This document shows, in pieces, positions 1-9,442 of a stretch of 9,442 nucleotides of DNA. A program made the translations under genes and the position numbers. The DNA is from a virus. Taxonomy: Duplodnaviria; Heunggongvirae; Uroviricota; Caudoviricetes. Positions within the stretch are counted from its first letter, which is position 1. Each line of letters begins with the position of its first letter. The DNA lies in the IMG/VR virus record IMGVR_UViG_2548876961_000016. The stretch is one strand, 5' to 3'. A model generated the notes under the pieces. It worked only from the letters and a program-made list of their open reading frames with translations. It made no database searches and was not told the DNA's origin.

Positions 1-173
1 TGTCAGTTATCATCTTCGGTTACGGTTATCGGCAGAACGCCCTGCCGCTGACAAGAGCTTATTTGCCTGACCAATCTACTCCACATGATAGATAACTATC
101 ATTTATAACATTTCATTGATTAGTCTTTATTTTTCACTATGTTACAAATAACAACTCCGTCAAAAACAGCGAA

Positions 174-978: not shown

Positions 979-1902
979 TCAGCTTTTCGCCAGAACGGTG
1001 ACGGCCTTATCGAGTTTTTGCCATCCGCAATAGGTGATTGCCCTGAACGCTGTAGCGTCATTCTGGAAAAGGCTAACCGCCCCTGATTCGGTTTTTATTA
1101 CCGCCTCATCAGTTGGGGTTATAACCGTGGCTTCAACGTTAATAATCAGCTTTTGAGCGTCTATCAGCATCATGCGATCCGCCTGTTCGCTCACAATTAC
1201 CGGTATTCTCAAAAGCTCTATCTGCCAGAACTCAGCATCAGTAAGCTGTAAGGCGTTTTCTACGGGCAATATTAGCGACGACGTGGAAAGCGTGTTACCG
1301 TTCGCTATGTGCTTTTTGAAAATCTCTATGAAGTTTTCGGCCTCATCAGCACCATTAAGCACGCCCTCAGGGGATACGCCAGCCACCTCCTGATCACTGG
1401 AAAGAAATTTTTTATCTATTTCTTTCACCGATTCCGATGTGATCAAGTCTCTGATCGCTGAATTTGTACCAGGGGTGCTAAATTTGATTAGCTCGTTATT
1501 CAGCATCACAATAGCGCCAAGTTTGCACAATTTTAGCGCACTTTCGTTTACTTCTCCCTCTTTGACAGGGATTTCTTCGGCTTCTTTAAGCCATTTACTA
1601 CCCTTGCCTGATATTGAATGCAATTTTGCGCCAAACGGAAGATTAAGCGCGCTGCTGATTAGCTTGCCTGGTACAGACTGCGAAAAAATATACTCGCCAA
1701 GCTCTCTTACTATCGGCTCTGCCACCAGCGACGGCATGTTATCCGTAGTCATTCTGTTGACGATGGATTTTTCAAGAAATTTCGATACTGCCGGATCATT
1801 TCTTTTCGTCATCTCTATAGCGTCAGCATGGCTAAATTTACACGATGCCAGCACGCTGGCGGCGCGAACTGCTGACACGCCTTTCATGTTTTTACAGATC
1901 AT
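979..1902 (-). CDS. Putative HK97-fold major capsid protein homologue (307 aa); product call tentative
   Basis: Strong RBS (AGGAGGAGGAAGAAG before the ATG). A central segment (LGAIVMLNNELIKFSTPGTNSAIRDLITSESVKEIDKKFLSSDQEVAGVSPEGVLNGADE, then SSLILPVENALQL) follows the conserved HK97-family pattern (SdELl.ds...sYi...L......E...fLnGdGtg..p.Gil, then sGivlNP.dw..i). Judged by eye, not by search. Confidence 0.55.
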   Translation of the reverse strand: MICKNMKGVSAVRAASVLASCKFSHADAIEMTKRNDPAVSKFLEKSIVNRMTTDNMPSLVAEPIVRELGEYIFSQSVPGKLISSALNLPFGAKLHSISGKGSKWLKEAEEIPVKEGEVNESALKLCKLGAIVMLNNELIKFSTPGTNSAIRDLITSESVKEIDKKFLSSDQEVAGVSPEGVLNGADEAENFIEIFKKHIANGNTLSTSSLILPVENALQLTDAEFWQIELLRIPVIVSEQADRMMLIDAQKLIINVEATVITPTDEAVIKTESGAVSLFQNDATAFRAITYCGWQKLDKAVTVLAKS

Positions 1903-2053
1903 CTTCTTCCTCCTCCTGGAAGCACGGGTTTAGTGTTTCGTGAAAATATGGCATCAGAACAGCGGCGGCCTGTAACCGTATTTCGGTCGACTGCTGCTTG
2001 TCGTTCATGATTTCCGTGAGTACATCAATAGGGTCTGTGATGTATTCGCTCAT
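1892..2053 (-). CDS. Hypothetical small acidic-tailed protein (53 aa), not in the ORF track
   Basis: My translation: MSEYITDPIDVLTEIMNDKQQSTEIRLQAAAVLMPYFHETLNPCFQEEEEDDL. GAGGT lies 8 nt upstream of the ATG at 2053; it sits between the TerS-like stop (2065) and the 307-aa gene, overlapping the latter's start by 11 nt. Confidence 0.3.
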   Translation of the reverse strand: MSEYITDPIDVLTEIMNDKQQSTEIRLQAAAVLMPYFHETLNPCFQEEEEDDL

Positions 2054-2064
2054 AGTTCGCTACC

Positions 2065-2553
2065 TCAGTGTTTTAAGTCTGTTGGTGGCTTAGGGATGGG
2101 GAACCGATTTGAGTAGACACTAGCGGCATTGAGTTTTTTAACCTCTTTTTTCCCAATGCTGCCGATCTTGCGGTGGGTGAACTGGGCCAGCTTAAACGCG
2201 GCATCTAAAGCCAGTTTTGGATCTGTGTCCATGTTGTCAATCAGTATCCTGCCCATTGCTTTGATGGGGTCGGGTAGGCCGTTATCCATCATCTCAATGG
2301 TGTTAATTGATGCCCGTTCCGGTGTAACTTTTTCGGTAACTTTCTTTGTAACTTTTTTCGGTTTTGTAACCTGAAAAGTTACATCAGAAGTTACAGCCTT
2401 AAGATACTTTTTCACCTCAGGATCGTTGGATAGCTGCCAGCCTTTAACCCTTGCGGTCTTTTCGCTGTATCCCGCATGTATAGCGGCTTCCGTGGGATTT
2501 GCGCCCCTTGATAACGCATCAGCAAACCGCTTTTTTTTGGTCGTTAATGCCAT
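2065..2553 (-). CDS. Terminase small-subunit-like HTH protein (TerS-like; possible packaging-specificity factor)
   Basis: N-terminus from the internal ATG at 2553 (MALTTKKKRFADALSRGANPTEAAIHAGYSEKTARVKGWQLSNDPEVKKYLKAV) matches the TerS N-terminal DNA-binding pattern (AAI.AGYS.K.A.....L). GAGG lies 7 nt upstream of that ATG. A 4-aa periodic linker (VTKPKKVTKKVTEKVT) follows. The open frame extends to an ATG at 2688 through a G10 tract, so the start is ambiguous. Confidence 0.6.
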   Translation of the reverse strand: MALTTKKKRFADALSRGANPTEAAIHAGYSEKTARVKGWQLSNDPEVKKYLKAVTSDVTFQVTKPKKVTKKVTEKVTPERASINTIEMMDNGLPDPIKAMGRILIDNMDTDPKLALDAAFKLAQFTHRKIGSIGKKEVKKLNAASVYSNRFPIPKPPTDLKH

Positions 2554-2575
2554 GCAAAAACCTCGTTTTGAGGGG

Positions 2576-2598
2576 GTGTAACTTTTCGTGTAACTTTT
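2576..2598. repeat. Tandem direct repeat GTGTAACTTTT x2 upstream of the TerS-like gene
   Basis: Copies at about 2576-2586 and 2588-2598. The same GTAAC(T)TTT motif recurs with 12-bp period inside the gene (about 2324, 2336, 2348, 2366) and inverted (GTTAC at about 2378 and 2390). Confidence 0.4.
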
Positions 2599-2671
2599 TT
2601 GAAAAGCAAAATTTTCTACGAATGAGACGGGGGACGGTGTCCAGGGTGATCGACTTTCCGGCCGGAACACT

Positions 2672-2681
2672 CCCCCCCCCC
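2672..2681. repeat. Homopolymeric tract C10 (G10 on the coding strand) 4 nt after the ATG at 2688
   Basis: Supported independently by both ORF-track translations (MTWGGG... on minus, ...LPPPM on plus). Confidence 0.8.
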
Positions 2682-2684
2682 ATG

Positions 2685-2846
2685 TCATTGCTCACCGAGT
2701 AACGAGATCAGGCCTTCAACTTCATTACTCAGCTTGTTTATTCGTGTCTCAAGCTCTGCGATCTTTTCCATCAATGGCGCTATAGTGTCTCTTGTTTCCT
2801 CGCCAATGGCCTTAATGATGCTTGCCTCGCGTTCTGTGATAGCCAT
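2685..2846 (-). CDS. Hypothetical small coiled-coil-like protein (53 aa), not in the ORF track
   Basis: My translation: MAITEREASIIKAIGEETRDTIAPLMEKIAELETRINKLSNEVEGLISLLGEQ. The ATG is 3 nt after the upstream stop with GGTGAGG about 8 nt upstream; its TGA overlaps the ATG at 2688 (ATGA). Confidence 0.4.
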   Translation of the reverse strand: MAITEREASIIKAIGEETRDTIAPLMEKIAELETRINKLSNEVEGLISLLGEQ

Positions 2847-2849
2847 TTG

Positions 2850-3044
2850 TTATGCCTCACCTGTTGCAATGCCCAGTCTTTCGCGTAACAGCACACGTGC
2901 AAGATGACCTATTGTTGGCGTGGCGGCTCTGCCGTATATACCAGCTTCATTCATCCGGCGAATAACATCGAATTGAAGTTTTTTAAGCTCGTTTAGGATC
3001 TCGTGATCAATCATCACGGTAGCGCTTTGCTTTATCTCTTCCAC
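2850..3044 (-). CDS. Hypothetical small protein (64 aa), first gene of the packaging-like operon
   Basis: Strong RBS (AGGAGGA 5-6 nt before the ATG at 3044) and an AT-rich promoter-like region upstream (3045-3132). Sequence MEEIKQSATVMIDHEILNELKKLQFDVIRRMNEAGIYGRAATPTIGHLARVLLRERLGIATGEA. Confidence 0.55.
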   Translation of the reverse strand: MEEIKQSATVMIDHEILNELKKLQFDVIRRMNEAGIYGRAATPTIGHLARVLLRERLGIATGEA

Positions 3045-3132
3045 TTTGTTTCCTCCTGATACTTATCATCGCATAATCAGTATTTTCGATAGATTATCAT
3101 TAATCAACCATTTTTTAAGATATGAGAGATCG

Positions 3133-3156
3133 AAAAAAAGCCGGATTGCTCCGGCT
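3133..3156 (-). terminator. Rho-independent terminator ending the replication operon
   Basis: Minus-strand RNA reads AGCCGGA, loop GCAA, UCCGGCU, then U6-7, about 20 nt after the stop at 3175. Confidence 0.6.
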
Positions 3157-3174
3157 ATGTGCTCACTCCTTCGG

Positions 3175-3483
3175 TTATTCTCCAGTGCTTTTAACGTTGA
3201 TGGTTGTTACCTGTTCCGCTTCTGCAATCTCCCGCTCTGTCAGCGTGGCAAAGTTTGCCGCCGCCGTGGTCATGAATGCGCTTATTAGTTCGGGATTCTC
3301 CTTCGCGTATCCTTCCCGTGTGTGGCGGTCTATAACTTTGATTGCCACCTTTAGGGAAAGCTCTGTCATGTCTAACGCTTTATATTTTTGCTGTGTTCTG
3401 TCTCTGCGCATTTTGGTCATTTGTCGCCCCTGATTCATGTTTTCGGTCGGCATGTTTGTTAAGTGATTTTGATGTATGCACAT
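3175..3483 (-). CDS. Hypothetical protein (102 aa; real start may be an internal ATG) downstream of the origin
   Basis: Minus-strand ORF followed by a clean intrinsic terminator on the same strand; the overlapping plus-strand ORFs look non-protein-like. Several in-frame ATGs, none with a strong RBS. Confidence 0.5.
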   Translation of the reverse strand: MCIHQNHLTNMPTENMNQGRQMTKMRRDRTQQKYKALDMTELSLKVAIKVIDRHTREGYAKENPELISAFMTTAAANFATLTEREIAEAEQVTTINVKSTGE

Positions 3484-3530
3484 TTATTTTTACCCCCCTC
3501 GTTTAAAAAGTTTTAGGTTGTGGTGCACCT

Positions 3531-3756
3531 CCTCTACCTCTTCTACCTAATCATCTTTCAGGTCAGTAATGGCGCGGCTTTCAGATGGGTAGAGGACTTT
3601 TCGTGGCCCTCTACCCATCCTCTACCCGCCCCTCACAAACGACCTTAATCATGGTAGAGGGGGTAGAGGGGTTTTATTAGCCTTCTACCTATCCCTCTAC
3701 CCACTTATCATGTTGAATAATATGCGTTTATTTCATTCAGGTAGATGGGGTAGAGG
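3531..3756. repeat. Iteron array (about 10 copies of GGTAGAGG / CCTCTACC in both orientations): putative origin of replication
   Basis: CCTCTACC at about 3531, 3608, 3619 and 3694; variants CTTCTACC at about 3541 and 3682; GGTAGAGG at about 3588, 3653, 3662 and 3749; variant GGTAGATGG at about 3740. Several copies are 9-12 bp apart, with AT-rich flanks, immediately downstream of the primase stop. Confidence 0.6.
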
Positions 3757-3770
3757 GCTTTTACAAAAAA

Positions 3771-5519
3771 TTATAAAAACGCGTCACAATCATCCGTTGT
3801 AATTGCGTTGGTCTGCGTTACTCCCTTAACTTTTCGCGTAATATATTCATGTCCGTAAACTTTCGCCGCTGGCTTCATGGCCTTGCTGAAATCAGCCACG
3901 TTTAGCGGCTTGCTTCTTCCTGCGTATGCCATAAACGCCAGATAGACGCGGTAAAGGCTGTTTCTGGTCGTGTACTTCACGGAATCGCCACCGCCACCCA
4001 TCATCAGGCCGCGCGCTTCCTCCAGAAAATTCAGGAACTGGCAAAACTCAATAACCGGATCTGTCTGTTGCTTTATCGCCAGTGCTTCATCACCGTCGCG
4101 CTGTTCCAGTAATAAAGCCCGTGCCTTTTCAGGGTCAGCAAAATTAGCCAGCAAGCGGCGGATAATCACAGGGATTTCAGCCGCGACCTTCTCCGGCAAA
4201 TCCTTGTCCTTTTCTGCCTCGCTAACGATATTGTCAAAGCGAAAAATAACCCGACGACGTGCCACGCCTCCGGCCCGTTCGGTGAATATCATCGGGTTGT
4301 TGTTGGTCGCCAGCACCACCGCCCTGATTACCGCCGTGAAACGCTTTTCATATTTCGGGTTAATTTCCACGGGGTCGCCGCCCGTGATTTTCTTGATGCC
4401 CGTTCCTTCGCCTGTATATTTCGGCTGGTCAGCCAGGACGATAAGACGACTCCCGACAACCTGCGCGCGCCCTCCTGCATCATCGAGTGATGTCATCTCC
4501 GCGCTTACGGTGTTCTGTTTCCCTGCCAGAAGGCTGGCTATGTGTGTGAATGTACTTTTACCGCTCCCGCCGTCTCCGGTGGCCTCAATAAACATCTGCC
4601 AGTCGTACCGGTTCGCCATAATCATGTACAGCGCGGCACATATACGCATCATCTTGCGCGGGTCTTTTCCGGCTGCGTGCTCAAGCCATTTATGAAAGTT
4701 TGGCGCGTTGTCGCGAATGTTCTCCCCTGGTGCTGGTGGCGTGTACTCAATGCCGTTGTGCGTGGTGATCCAGTTCTCCGGCGTGTGCGGGGAAAATTCC
4801 CCCGTTTTCAGGTCAAGTGCACCATTGGCGAACGGCAGCAAATCGCCGGACGGCTCCCCCATTGGTTCGGCAATAACTTTTAACGCTTCAACGGCGTTAT
4901 TGATCACGCGTTTGCTGAAAGTGGCCCTGTGCTCTGAATAGATCGCCACCATTTCGCGGCTAAGTTCCATTGTGCTGACCGGACACCATACCCCGCCGCG
5001 CCATACGTGAACGATTTCACTTTCAGGATGTACGCAAACGCCATCAAAGCGATCGGCAAGCAGCTGGGCGCGCTCACTGTCTGCCATTTGTGCCAGTTGC
5101 GTATTTTTCTGCTCCGGCATGGTAAGCCCTGCGGCAATATTTTCACGCTCAGCATTCAGATAGCGCCGCCAGTTTTCACACTTCTGACCGTGCATTCCTT
5201 CGGGGTAAAATTTTGCATCCTGTACGCCTGCCGCCGCCAGCTTCTGACCAATCTTTTTGGTCTCCACCAAGTCCAGTTCTCCTGCCTGGTACAGCCTTAC
5301 GCGTTTTTTTCCATCAGGAACAATTTGCAGTGCATAAAGTTCGGCAAGCTGATTTGGCCCAAGCCACACAGGAGGCACATTATCGCCGGATGCGGGGCCG
5401 TCCTGCTCCTGCCACTGTTTTGCATGTGCCCACGCATCACTACCCGCGAAAATAATCACCTCTGTGTCTTTGTGTTTTATTCCGCGTGGCTGTTTTTTTA
5501 CGTTCGGTGCCAGTTTCAT
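3771..5519 (-). CDS. Replication initiation primase/helicase (phage/plasmid primase, P4-family C-terminal NTPase type)
   Basis: 582-aa ORF with Walker A GDGGSGKST at residues about 315-323 and a candidate Walker B (RLIVLADQ). Its size and its position upstream of an iteron array match satellite and P4-like Pri/Rep or alpha proteins. Confidence 0.85.
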   Translation of the reverse strand: MKLAPNVKKQPRGIKHKDTEVIIFAGSDAWAHAKQWQEQDGPASGDNVPPVWLGPNQLAELYALQIVPDGKKRVRLYQAGELDLVETKKIGQKLAAAGVQDAKFYPEGMHGQKCENWRRYLNAERENIAAGLTMPEQKNTQLAQMADSERAQLLADRFDGVCVHPESEIVHVWRGGVWCPVSTMELSREMVAIYSEHRATFSKRVINNAVEALKVIAEPMGEPSGDLLPFANGALDLKTGEFSPHTPENWITTHNGIEYTPPAPGENIRDNAPNFHKWLEHAAGKDPRKMMRICAALYMIMANRYDWQMFIEATGDGGSGKSTFTHIASLLAGKQNTVSAEMTSLDDAGGRAQVVGSRLIVLADQPKYTGEGTGIKKITGGDPVEINPKYEKRFTAVIRAVVLATNNNPMIFTERAGGVARRRVIFRFDNIVSEAEKDKDLPEKVAAEIPVIIRRLLANFADPEKARALLLEQRDGDEALAIKQQTDPVIEFCQFLNFLEEARGLMMGGGGDSVKYTTRNSLYRVYLAFMAYAGRSKPLNVADFSKAMKPAAKVYGHEYITRKVKGVTQTNAITTDDCDAFL

Positions 5520-5815
5520 TTTTTACCCCTGAATACGTTAAGCATCTTTTTTATTTCCTGAATATTGGCGCGTGCTTTCTCCCTGCTGGTTGGCTTACTG
5601 CGGGGCGCTGCCTGTACCAGAGAAAAATCACGGTTGAACTGATAAACAGGCATAACGCAATCATATTCGTAGCCTTCACGGCGGTAAGTTACGCGCCGTT
5701 CCTCCACGCCCTTAATCATTACCGTGCCGCCGTACTTATCGCGGTAAATATCCCCGCACATGAATTTAGTGCGAGTTTTGCCGCTGGCAGTTAAGCCAGA
5801 ATATTTAAGTTTCAT
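5516..5815 (-). CDS. Hypothetical protein (99 aa) immediately upstream of and coupled to the primase gene
   Basis: ATG at 5815 with GGAGA about 9 nt upstream; its stop overlaps the primase start (ATGA). Basic protein (MKLKYSGLTASGKTRTKFMCGDIYRDKYGG...), no motif recognised. Confidence 0.55.
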   Translation of the reverse strand: MKLKYSGLTASGKTRTKFMCGDIYRDKYGGTVMIKGVEERRVTYRREGYEYDCVMPVYQFNRDFSLVQAAPRSKPTSREKARANIQEIKKMLNVFRGKK

Positions 5816-7132: not shown

Positions 7133-7357
7133 CTACGCTGCCTTACCTGAATTAATACGATCCCGGCTTTTAACCCATTCCATAACCTCGGAAAGCAGCC
7201 AACCTACTGAACGACCACCCAGATTACGGCGTGACGGGAAATTCCCTTTTTTCTCCAGTTCGTAGCGTGTAGTGCGGCACACTCCTGTTAACTTACGGCA
7301 TTCATCCTCACGGATTACGCGATCTGATAGTGATTGAAATTGTGTATTTTGATTCAT
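7133..7357 (-). CDS. alpA: AlpA-family (Phage_AlpA / Vis-like) HTH transcriptional regulator
   Basis: 74-aa ORF. Core RVIREDECRKLTGVCRTTRYELEKKGNFPSRRNLGGRSVGWLLSEVMEWV matches the AlpA-family pattern (l..ev...tGlsrst.y.l...g.FP.p..lg.r.vgW...ev..W). Its position downstream of the integrase matches CP4-57-like elements. Confidence 0.85.
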   Translation of the reverse strand: MNQNTQFQSLSDRVIREDECRKLTGVCRTTRYELEKKGNFPSRRNLGGRSVGWLLSEVMEWVKSRDRINSGKAA

Positions 7358-7419: not shown

Positions 7420-7453
7420 GTGTGATATCACACTACCAGCACGTGATATCACT
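7420..7453. promoter_or_regulatory. Pair of palindromic operator-like sites (GTGTGATATCACAC and GTGATATCAC) about 21 bp centre to centre, upstream of alpA
   Basis: Perfect 14-bp palindrome at about 7420-7433 and perfect 10-bp palindrome at about 7443-7452, sharing the core GTGATATCAC. Two-helical-turn spacing is typical of cooperative dimer binding. The second site overlaps the stop codon of the 257-aa gene. Confidence 0.5.
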
Positions 7454-8222
7454 TTTTACGTTTTTGTTGAGATTCACGCCCCAAATACTTTTGCCATGTC
7501 TGCCAATGTGTTTTTGGAAATTCTATCCCTCTGGATGCAGCTATAGAATCAATTAAATCTGCTATTTTAGGTAATGATTCCGTGTCCAGGTCTACATCAC
7601 CCATTTCTGGAATAAGTTTAATTAAAGAGTAAATAACCTCATTCCTTTTTGACGATGCTTTTGGGCTATCTTCTGTTATCTTCGGGAAGTCTCCCGTATT
7701 TTTTATATTATCTAAATCACTAGCCATCACACACAAATAGTTAACATCAAATTCATAACCACCCTTACAAAAAACATACATGAGATTATCATCACCATAC
7801 TTATTCGTAAGATGAGAACATTTTATATATTGTCTCATGCTAAATTCGACATCAGCAAAAACATATGCCGGAGTATAATAAAACCCTGATAAGCTGCTAA
7901 CATAATAACATTTGATAGAATTCCCTACAGGACCAATAATGGCACTATCTAAAAATTCAGTGTCACCAGTTAAACCAACTGTAAAATTACTTCCAAAAAC
8001 AGCAGATTCATCATTGAAAGGATATTTTATTAATTCTTCCTCATTACAACCATTGATAAAATGACATAATGAAAAATTGAATTTTTTAGCATCAATTTTT
8101 GGTATATATACAGAAATATTAAGAGCACCTATATATGCGTAATGATAAAGATCTTTTATTGCACAGCCTAACTTTTCTGCCGCTTCAGGTAACGGATAAT
8201 AGAGTCTTTTAGGTAATTTCAT
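7449..8222 (-). CDS. Hypothetical protein, AT-rich cargo gene in the int-alpA slot; N-terminal HTH-like segment, remainder unrecognised
   Basis: 257-aa ORF whose start overlaps the integrase stop by ATGA. Residues 5-35 (LYYPLPEAAEKLGCAIKDLYHYAYIGAL) resemble an excisionase/MerR-like helix-turn-helix; the rest is Tyr/Phe/Asn-rich with no motif I recognise. G+C looks much lower (roughly one third, by eye) than flanking genes (about half). Followed by a hairpin plus U-tract (7358-7392). Confidence 0.65.
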   Translation of the reverse strand: MKLPKRLYYPLPEAAEKLGCAIKDLYHYAYIGALNISVYIPKIDAKKFNFSLCHFINGCNEEELIKYPFNDESAVFGSNFTVGLTGDTEFLDSAIIGPVGNSIKCYYVSSLSGFYYTPAYVFADVEFSMRQYIKCSHLTNKYGDDNLMYVFCKGGYEFDVNYLCVMASDLDNIKNTGDFPKITEDSPKASSKRNEVIYSLIKLIPEMGDVDLDTESLPKIADLIDSIAASRGIEFPKTHWQTWQKYLGRESQQKRKK

Positions 8223-9442
8223 TTGGCCACCTTCAGCATAACAATATTTTCATGATTTCCAGCCAGCACATCGAGGCGCTCAACCCATAGATTAAGAGCG
8301 TCACGTTTTGCATCAAGATAACGGGAGTGATTATAGACTCGTTGCATTCCTGGCAACTGGTGCGCGGTAAGCTGCTCCACAACATGCGGTTCCACGCCTA
8401 AATCGTTCAGCATCGTTGTAAACGTGTGCCGGATGTCGTGCAACGTCCAGGGGGCTTGATTAATGCGTCTGTGTGCCGTTCTTCCGTACTCTGATACGGA
8501 TGATTGCCCTTTCAGTTCTCCGAGCAATAAGCCCGTGTGCCTGTTCTGCTCCACCAGCTTCATGACAAACGGCAAGATCGCTTCCGGTATTGGCCTGAAT
8601 ATTGCTACCTTCGTTTTGCTGTGTTCTTTCGGCACGGTCCAGAGCATTTCTTTAAAATCCCATTCCTGGACCTCAGAGCGTCTTAGCTCAGTGGTACGAC
8701 ATCCGAAGACAATCAGGAGGCGAATCAGGGCGCTGTAGTACGGTGGGTAAATTTTTTCATCAAGGGCGCGTAGTAATTCCCCAAGCTCCTTGTTTGTTAG
8801 TACGCGCTCGCTTATTTCTGCTTTTTTCCCAACATCACCGACAACCATATCATCAAGAACGTTGCTGATTGCGTATCGTCGTTTTCGGCAGTACTTAAGC
8901 GCCTGTTTGCATACCTGTAGCAAAAATCCGGCTGATACCGGATTACGCTTAGCAAGCTGGTCAAAACAGGCCAGCCAGTGGCGTAGCTCGCATTTTTCCA
9001 GTGGCATAGCTCCAATCTGGCTAATTATGTGTTTATTGATCCGGCTTTTCAGTGATTCGTAGTCAGTGCGCTTTTCCTTTGCGTACGATTCAAGCCAGTA
9101 AGTGAGCGCTTCCTTAACCGTCACGGGGGCTAACGCGTCCTGTACAGCATGATTAAGTTCATAGCGCGGATTTTTCCCCTCAGCCAGCCATGCGCGACAT
9201 TGCGACGCTTTTTCCCTGGCTGCTTTCAGGCTCAAATCTGGATAATTTCCCAGCCTCAGACGTTCAGGTGATATCTGCCTACCAGTTCCGGACCTGTAAG
9301 TGAAATACCAGGTTAACAGGCCATTGGTTGAATGCCTTACGCTAAGGTTGCCACCATCATTAAAAAAGGTGCTTTTTGTGGTTGGTGATCCGCTTAATTT
9401 TCGTAAAAGAGTGTCGCTAAGTCTATGAATTGCCCTGCTCAT
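8219..9442 (-). CDS. int: Tyrosine site-specific integrase (P4/CP4-57-type phage integrase family)
   Basis: 407-aa ORF. C-terminal catalytic region has the His-x-x-Arg box (LHDIRHTFTTML) and a tyrosine-containing tail (RVYNHSRYLDAKRDALNLW); an upstream Arg box is present (FGCRTTELRRSEV). The ATG is on the last bases of the window, so promoter, att site and any longer N-terminus are not visible. The stop overlaps the next gene start (ATGA). Confidence 0.9.
   Translation of the reverse strand: MSRAIHRLSDTLLRKLSGSPTTKSTFFNDGGNLSVRHSTNGLLTWYFTYRSGTGRQISPERLRLGNYPDLSLKAAREKASQCRAWLAEGKNPRYELNHAVQDALAPVTVKEALTYWLESYAKEKRTDYESLKSRINKHIISQIGAMPLEKCELRHWLACFDQLAKRNPVSAGFLLQVCKQALKYCRKRRYAISNVLDDMVVGDVGKKAEISERVLTNKELGELLRALDEKIYPPYYSALIRLLIVFGCRTTELRRSEVQEWDFKEMLWTVPKEHSKTKVAIFRPIPEAILPFVMKLVEQNRHTGLLLGELKGQSSVSEYGRTAHRRINQAPWTLHDIRHTFTTMLNDLGVEPHVVEQLTAHQLPGMQRVYNHSRYLDAKRDALNLWVERLDVLAGNHENIVMLKVAK

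Follow-up and report, generated by a model that had tools for sequence, protein, structure and literature searches.

An iteron array 3' of pri-rep as the probable replication origin of an Escherichia coli phage-inducible chromosomal island

The DNA analysed here, referred to throughout as the window, is a 9,442-nt stretch from a tailed-phage-like record (IMG/VR IMGVR_UViG_2548876961_000016), and it carries at positions 3531-3756 (minus strand) an array of short repeats, or iterons, that we consider as the putative origin of replication (ori) of a phage-inducible chromosomal island (PICI). The array lies between the gene for a 582-aa initiator protein, Pri-Rep, and the next open reading frame (ORF). 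About ten octamer copies in both orientations within some 230 bp had been noticed in the original prediction, and 11 were found in 226 bp. Eight exact copies of GGTAGAGG occur in the window, all of them inside 3531-3756, while shuffled sequences gave an expectation of 0.11 and none of 200 shuffles reached eight. A scan allowing one mismatch added three copies there, two of GGTAGAAG (3540 and 3682) and one of GGTAGATG (3740), bringing the total to 11 copies of GGTAGA(G/A/T)G with the extended consensus R-GGTAGA-G-G-R. Five copies are on the plus strand (starting at 3588, 3653, 3662, 3740 and 3749) and six on the minus strand (3531, 3540, 3608, 3619, 3682 and 3694). The GGTAGA hexamer is equally restricted, since every one of its 11 copies in the window falls within the 226 bp of the array (2.3 expected for the whole window), and a check against a complete genome demonstrated the same confinement across the whole island. 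Outside the array, neither the window nor the island holds a GGTAGA copy; related satellites carry homologous arrays.

The layout of the array can be followed outward from the initiator gene. The TAA stop (3771-3773) of the Pri-Rep ORF (3771-5519, minus strand) is separated by 14 nt from the first iteron, which agrees with the predicted position directly 3' of the initiator stop. The nearest iteron pair (3740-3756, plus strand) consists of GGTAGATG at 3740-3747 and GGTAGAGG at 3749-3756, 9 nt apart from start to start, and is followed by a 38-nt spacer of 74% AT (3702-3739), a candidate melting (DNA-unwinding) site with opposite-orientation iteron pairs on either side. Beyond the spacer lie a minus-strand pair at 3682-3701 (GGTAGAAG at 3682-3689, GGTAGAGG at 3694-3701), a plus-strand pair at 3653-3669 (two GGTAGAGG copies at 9-nt spacing), a minus-strand pair at 3608-3626 (two GGTAGAGG copies at 11-nt spacing) and a single plus-strand GGTAGAGG at 3588-3595, which is inverted relative to the copy at 3608 and 20 nt from it, start to start. 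A conserved non-iteron block of 21 nt, CTGAAAGCCGCGCCATTACTG (3564-3584, minus strand), stands between this single iteron and the last pair, which is the farthest from the initiator gene (3531-3547, minus strand) and comprises GGTAGAGG at 3531-3538 and GGTAGAAG at 3540-3547 at 9-nt spacing. Most copies are thus arranged in tandem pairs 9, 11 or 12 nt apart, with pair orientation alternating along the array, and a 34-nt module is repeated within it, 74 nt apart and at 79% identity. The far end of the array is 47 nt before the ATG of the first gene 3' of it (3175-3483, minus strand), which is preceded by a conserved Shine-Dalgarno sequence, GAGGGGGG, at 3492-3499.

The claim that AT-rich DNA flanks the repeats was borne out only in part: the array itself is not AT-rich, having 47% GC against 46% for the window, and AT-richness is concentrated in the internal spacer and in the 14-nt leader after the stop (79% AT). 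The spacer is off-centre, with two iterons on one side and nine on the other. Scans of the gap between pri-rep and the next gene predicted neither a sigma-70 promoter nor a terminator, and the IHF consensus has no match within 3484-3770. Matches to the DnaA box were not enriched (21 against 22 expected), and a one-mismatch match was present at the edge only. A scan of the window against Rfam gave nothing credible, a full-text literature search for the octamer returned only unrelated primer sequences, and a search of a phage collection produced no match. The CTGAAAGCCGCGCCATTACTG block fits none of the DnaA, IHF or promoter consensus sequences that were scanned.

The initiator protein comprises a D5_N domain (residues 151-280), an SF3 helicase domain (DUF5906, residues 314-415) and a Pox_D5/P4-type origin-binding domain (residues 485-573). 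Residues 486-574, encoded at 3798-4064 on the minus strand and probably the reader of the iterons, match the origin-binding domain of P4 alpha (PDB 1ka8) in phmmer, with E = 1e-5 for the full-length protein and 1e-6 for the domain alone, while the helicase core (residues 193-430) matches SaPI5 PriRep (7ola) with E = 4e-15. In Pfam, the first 150 residues matched nothing at E <= 1, although zinc-ribbon and Toprim domains do score in P4 alpha and in the initiator allele of E. coli Br190; an hhalign comparison of this N-terminal module with the P4-type N-terminus reached a probability of 0.13. A degenerate Toprim domain in these residues was considered and rejected, as the Pfam search at E <= 1 and the hhalign comparison with P4-type N-termini were both empty. 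The description of the protein as a primase/helicase accordingly stands for its SF3 helicase and origin-binding domains, while "primase" survives as an annotation name, with no zinc-ribbon or Toprim detectable. Two AlphaFold models of the binding domain were produced, one from the single sequence and one from seven sequences; both were of low confidence, and only helix boundaries were taken from them.

Additionally, residues 1 to about 125 (5145-5519) share 64% identity with the N-terminus of a RepA/AAA_25 helicase from the island EcCI11368.1 (locus L021, 4240-4605), to which the rest of the protein is unrelated. They therefore form a portable module common to two helicase types that have different iterons.

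The closest experimentally studied relative is EcCICFT073, whose Pri-Rep is 91% identical to that of the window overall, with 98-100% identity over residues 151-582, 98% over the binding domain and 70% over residues 1-150. The 288-nt gap 3' of its pri-rep gene is collinear with window positions 3484-3770, and both gaps hold the stop-proximal iteron pair, the AT-rich spacer, iterons in both orientations at matching positions, CTGAAAGCCGCGCCATTACTG, the final pair and the Shine-Dalgarno region. Fillol-Salom et al. (2018) located the PICI origin in the region immediately 3' of the initiator gene (PMC6092414). Iteron sets of opposite orientation on either side of an AT-rich stretch are described for PICI as well as for SaPI origins, and the array shows this layout. 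In the same study, a temperature-sensitive plasmid carrying the EcCICFT073 rep gene and its putative ori formed colonies at 44 degrees C, while the corresponding plasmid formed none with a rep mutation and significantly fewer with an ori deletion (PMC6092414). Plasmid maintenance in this 91%-identical system has thus been shown to depend on pri-rep and ori. A literature search for initiator-binding data turned up none for any Gram-negative PICI.

Selection on the array was assessed in an alignment of 12 distinct haplotypes of the GGTAGA origin type from E. coli and Shigella. Columns of the iteron core were invariant in 80% of cases, compared with 27% of the remaining columns, which suggests, from column invariance across these haplotypes, that the iterons are under selection. 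Iteron positions 7-8 contain no invariant column and change together between allele groups. The AT-rich character of the spacer is kept in all 12 haplotypes, and CTGAAAGCCGCGCCATTACTG is nearly invariant among spacers that vary next to it; it is even partly kept in the Br190 allele, despite the other iterons found there. Over the last 299 codons, Pri-Rep of the window and of EcCICFT073 differ by 53 synonymous and 6 non-synonymous codon changes, which indicates strong purifying selection on pri-rep.

The number of iterons varies among relatives. Strain N66 has 12 through an 8-nt duplication, and FDAARGOS_943 has six in a 205-nt gap.

More distant initiator alleles keep the arrangement that follows the stop codon, namely a pair, an AT-rich stretch and about nine more copies in both orientations, but they do so with other repeats. 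The iteron is GGTATACA in E. coli EC25, GTAGGGAT in E. coli Br190, CTGTTCAC in Serratia aquatilis and TGTTCAT in Morganella morganii, while that of E. coli strain 272, TGTTCACC, is the exact P4 type I repeat (NC_001609). Written in the P4 orientation, the repeats form a graded series from P4 (TGTTCACC) through CFT073 (TGTCTACC) and EC25 (TGTATACC) to the window (CCTCTACC). Among the four TGTTCA-type proteins, the binding domains share 44-52% identity, whereas their identity to those of the GGTAGA type is 27-34%. Other parts of the protein do not follow this division: the helicase core of Serratia is 70% identical to that of the window despite its other iterons, and the N-terminal 150 residues of strain 272 are 68% identical to those of the window, yet this strain has P4-type iterons. 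In these comparisons the type of iteron goes with the origin-binding domain; it tracks neither the helicase core or the N-terminus nor alpA or the genes downstream.

A natural exchange of modules bears on the same point. EcCI11368.1 has five downstream genes in common with the window (84-98% amino-acid identity, with 97% for the small terminase, TerS), together with a DUF4222 protein of 78% identity, but its initiator is an unrelated RepA/AAA_25 helicase, and in the gap that follows this gene GGTAGA is absent, its place being taken by some ten copies of AAGTGGGGA. This swap indicates that the array follows the initiator gene and not the downstream operon or the terminase. In two further islands, the ori is 100% identical while AlpA is only 73% identical. 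Taken together, the comparisons document that origin-binding domain and array move and evolve jointly, with the packaging genes, the helicase core and the N-terminal module shuffled independently of this unit.

On this evidence, we consider 3531-3756 to be the vegetative replication origin of a PICI of about 9.5 kb inserted between cspD and clpS in E. coli, with a probability of roughly 0.85. By analogy with SaPI Rep and P4 alpha, the following course of events can be proposed. After induction, the C-terminal P4-alpha-type domain of Pri-Rep would bind the 11 iterons of the GGTAGAGG type, and this binding would open the 38-nt AT-rich spacer; Pri-Rep, an SF3 helicase, would then load itself to serve as replicative helicase, and amplification of the island DNA for packaging would follow.

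Several points weigh against this assignment. Deletion of the ori from the EcCICFT073 plasmid left the number of colonies "significantly reduced" and did not abolish them (PMC6092414), and the text of that article does not give the exact boundaries of the deleted ori. In P4, what occupies this position is crr, which acts as an enhancer and is not where replication starts. Pri-Rep has no recognisable primase domain, and the mechanism proposed above accordingly has no primer-making step. Both models of the binding domain are of low confidence, with predicted local distance difference test (pLDDT) scores of 53 for the single sequence and 51 for the seven sequences. Finally, for this allele we infer binding, melting and replication alike from sequence.

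The P4 precedent leads to the first alternative, in which the array is a crr-like cis enhancer bound by Pri-Rep while replication starts elsewhere, as in P4. The position, the 9-nt tandem spacing and the mixed orientations are the same as those of P4 crr, and the repeated 34-nt module faintly recalls the two 120-bp repeats of crr. However, such an arrangement would call for a second cluster, and none is present, all 11 GGTAGA copies of the island lying within the array; moreover, pri-rep and the region downstream of it were enough for plasmid maintenance in EcCICFT073 (PMC6092414). We regard this possibility as improbable. It is similarly hard to credit that the array is an origin by descent only, inactive in a decaying remnant of an island. 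The island is indeed short (about 9.5 kb) and has no ssb gene, which in related islands comes after the ori, but the ORF of pri-rep is unbroken and strong purifying selection acts on it, 11 of 11 iterons keep their core, and 37 complete genomes carry the ori region with at least 99% identity.

A third possibility, that the repeats are operator sites, for a regulator or for Pri-Rep itself, which control the downstream packaging operon and are not, or not only, an origin, has equally small prospects. The array does lie directly 5' of the conserved Shine-Dalgarno sequence of the next gene, with no terminator separating it from pri-rep, and the conserved non-iteron block would find no explanation in an origin composed of iterons and a melting site. 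Against these observations, no sigma-70-like promoter was found in the region, the same downstream module in EcCI11368.1 is accompanied by a different Rep and different repeats, and the array does not track alpA. The proposal that the array is a pac site recognised by the island TerS is the weakest of all and is very improbable: although the island encodes TerS and repeats can be abundant in pac sites, islands of the EcCICFT073 type have homologous arrays together with different morphogenesis and packaging genes, EcCI11368.1 has none of these repeats in spite of a TerS that is 97% identical, and a better candidate is found in another non-coding region rich in repeats (about 290-965). Both the pac site and the operator array were rejected on the strength of natural module swaps, namely EcCI11368.1 and the islands whose AlpA proteins are 73% identical while their ori sequences are 100% identical.

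With the array read as an origin, its last two iteron positions raise the question of specificity. All 11 iterons of the window have G at position 8, and at position 7 eight have G, two A and one T; of the 11 in EcCICFT073, ten have A at position 8, and position 7 is occupied by C, T or G, giving the endings CA, TA, GA and GT. The two binding domains differ at only two residues, alanine 542 and serine 545 in the window (codons at 3885-3896, minus strand) against asparagine and glycine in EcCICFT073. Co-variation was followed in 11 loci of the GGTAGA origin type, which represent only about six lineages. All five loci in which position 8 is mostly G (the window, 2015C-3163, SMBL, MS1679 and N66) have A542 and S545, and all six in which it is A (CFT073, O55:H7, ATCC 25922, TO73, 14EC020 and FDAARGOS_943) have N542 and G545. 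IHE3034 and a Shigella flexneri locus, examined separately, combine arrays of the GGTAGA(C/T)A type with asparagine and glycine. A change from alanine to asparagine takes at least two base changes, and the strong purifying selection on pri-rep makes it unlikely that the A542N and S545G replacements are recent noise. V541 marks the start of the third helix of the binding domain in the two low-confidence AlphaFold models, tentatively placing A542 and S545 at the start of predicted helix 3.

Linkage is the chief reservation here. Codons 542 and 545 are within about 350 bp of the array, and the association could reflect one co-inherited recombination block. It is a tentative and rather doubtful proposal that the window and EcCICFT073 differ in replicon specificity through a natural switch of minimal size, with G or A at position 8 accompanied by A542N and S545G. 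If it is true, so that neither initiator activates the origin of the other, it would offer a compact, testable case of co-evolution between initiator and iteron and would explain how related satellites replicate separately within one cell. The original prediction had suggested a distinct replicon specificity from the difference to P4. Relative to P4 this is well supported, and the P4 type I iteron given there, TGTTCACC, agrees with the annotated record NC_001609; relative to EcCICFT073, the GGTAGA core is common to both and only positions 7-8 differ, so that cross-recognition is conceivable.

The island carrying the array is a PICI of about 9.5 kb at the cspD-clpS attachment site of the E. coli chromosome. 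The window is 99.9% identical to chromosomal DNA of E. coli strains, many of which are O157:H7 or O103:H2, and in these it lies between cspD and clpS. The 11-nt core of the attachment site, ATGATAGTTAT (92-102, minus strand), marks one island end, and a second copy is found about 180 nt past the right end of the window; the same core and the same cspD-clpS site are listed for EcCIIHE3034 and EcCI18098 (Table S1, PMC6092414). The main ORFs are all on the minus strand and include a tyrosine integrase (8219-9442), AlpA (7133-7357), small ORFs between AlpA and the DUF4222 gene, one of them Icd-like, the DUF4222 protein (5516-5815), pri-rep, three small ORFs between it and the small terminase, TerS itself (2065-2688) and an HK97-type capsid protein of 307 aa (979-1902). 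The features of a PICI are accordingly present, namely an integrase at a PICI-specific attachment site, alpA, pri-rep and packaging genes, all running in a single direction. A match covering at least 80% of the ori region was found in 167 of 5426 genomes. A search of contigs with the Pri-Rep protein yielded three loci, a small sample, and the homologous proteins listed for it all had at least 97% identity. RefSeq carries no annotation for the origin stretch.

The island has a mosaic structure, in which the replication module belongs to the EcCICFT073 type and the downstream module (979-3483) to the EcCI11368.1/EcCI11128 type (locus L021, 5842-8279; locus L003, 1-2998). Most relatives have ssb and perC after the origin, and both genes are missing here. 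For the gene 3' of the origin, RefSeq places the start at an internal ATG (246 nt), while the longer ORF has 309 nt and starts 8 nt after the GAGGGGGG Shine-Dalgarno sequence, which is invariant among the origin haplotypes; given this invariance and spacing, the RefSeq start may be too far downstream, leaving the gene too short. Between int and alpA lies a 257-aa ORF (7449-8222, minus strand) with no Pfam match, and it is missing from the otherwise near-identical island of strain SS TX 313-1; it may be an accessory gene.

At the other end, positions 103-978 form about 880 nt of non-coding, repeat-filled DNA between the attachment core and the capsid gene. This region contains an 88-nt direct repeat at 314-401 and 851-938 (95% identical), a palindrome, CCCGATATGGTGATCCCCATATCGGGAT, which is present at 819-846, at 937-964 and, in degenerate form, at 293-320, and four matches to the IHF consensus at 537-809, against 0.55 expected. 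It could be a packaging site or hold arm sites for integrase and IHF.

One further record concerns a relative of the island. CP088587.1 is a 32.5-kb circular "plasmid" in which chromosomal genes (clcB, mlc, mdtIJ, pntAB and ydgH) surround an integrated capsid-forming PICI. Its Pri-Rep lies at 17785-19539, the Pri-Rep/ori segment belongs to the present family and has 75.8% DNA identity to the window, and it was the only full-length match in the plasmid collection. This record is either an assembly artefact or the trace of in situ amplification from the island origin.

An element of this kind has already been described, and a close allele was tested in 2018. New here are the GGTAGAGG iteron variant, the documented evolution of binding domain and array as a unit, and the candidate two-residue specificity switch. 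The current picture of PICI or P4 replication is unchanged. The analysis annotates precisely the origin of a PICI that many enterohaemorrhagic E. coli carry, and its practical value lies in annotation, in the design of satellite-based vectors and in a small, testable specificity switch.

Comparison with known systems places the array among several related or similar origins to different degrees. From the DnaA-dependent iteron origins of plasmids such as pPS10, R6K and F it differs in that the DnaA-box or IHF feature that accompanies their iterons was not found next to the array. EcCI11368.1 and EcCI11128 resemble the window in the downstream genes, the upstream DUF4222 gene, an array of about ten repeats in the same gap and the first 125 or so residues of the helicase, but differ in an AAA_25/RepA-type helicase body, in having no P4-type binding domain and in their AAGTGGGGA repeats.

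P4 is similar in several respects. The initiator of the window has a D5_N domain, an SF3 helicase and a C-terminal domain homologous to 1ka8, and in P4 alpha the C-terminal domain is the part that binds type I iterons. The octamer cluster is likewise found in both orientations directly 3' of the initiator gene, with the 9-nt tandem spacing that is seen in the crr pair at 4314/4323. There are also differences. The window iteron, CCTCTACC, is identical to type I, TGTTCACC, at four of eight positions; the whole island has a single cluster, whereas P4 has an ori and a crr; the protein has 582 aa and no zinc-ribbon/Toprim, against 777 aa for P4 alpha; no terminator stands between gene and repeats, where P4 annotates t-alpha; and the binding domains are 31% identical. 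In P4 (NC_001609) the cluster directly 3' of alpha is crr, and the ori is about 4.5 kb away. The array is hence not a P4 origin in the strict sense, since the iteron, the single cluster and the absent primase domains all differ. The original prediction had named the architecture of P4 ori/crr and of PICI/SaPI origins. This reading is supported, as the PICI/SaPI layout does match, with the qualification that P4 has its crr, and not its ori, at this place.

In the pathogenicity islands of Staphylococcus aureus (SaPIs), the ori is immediately 3' of rep and consists of 6-12 short iterons around an AT-rich centre, with at least two iterons in opposite orientations on each side (PMC9371898). SaPI Rep reads the iterons with a C-terminal winged-helix domain, binds and melts the origin independently of ATP, and loads itself (PMC9371898). 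The layout in the window corresponds to this description, with the AT-rich stretch off-centre. SaPIs differ in their penta- or hexanucleotide iterons of unrelated sequence, in a protein similarity restricted to the helicase core (the C-terminal domain of the window protein matched P4 only), and in a Gram-positive host lineage, Staphylococcus aureus, with divergently transcribed islands.

The nearest counterpart is the EcCICFT073 origin. Both islands have the order DUF4222, pri-rep, ori, and a gap of about 287 nt with 11 GGTAGA-core iterons at corresponding positions, an AT-rich spacer after the first pair, the CTGAAAGCCGCGCCATTACTG block and the same downstream Shine-Dalgarno region. They differ in attachment site (ycfD-phoQ in EcCICFT073, cspD-clpS in the window) and in the downstream module, where the window has TerS and the 307-aa capsid protein and no ssb. 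Through its position 3' of the initiator gene, its AT-rich spacer between opposite iteron pairs, its homology to EcCICFT073 and its PICI carrier, the array has the features of a Gram-negative PICI origin.

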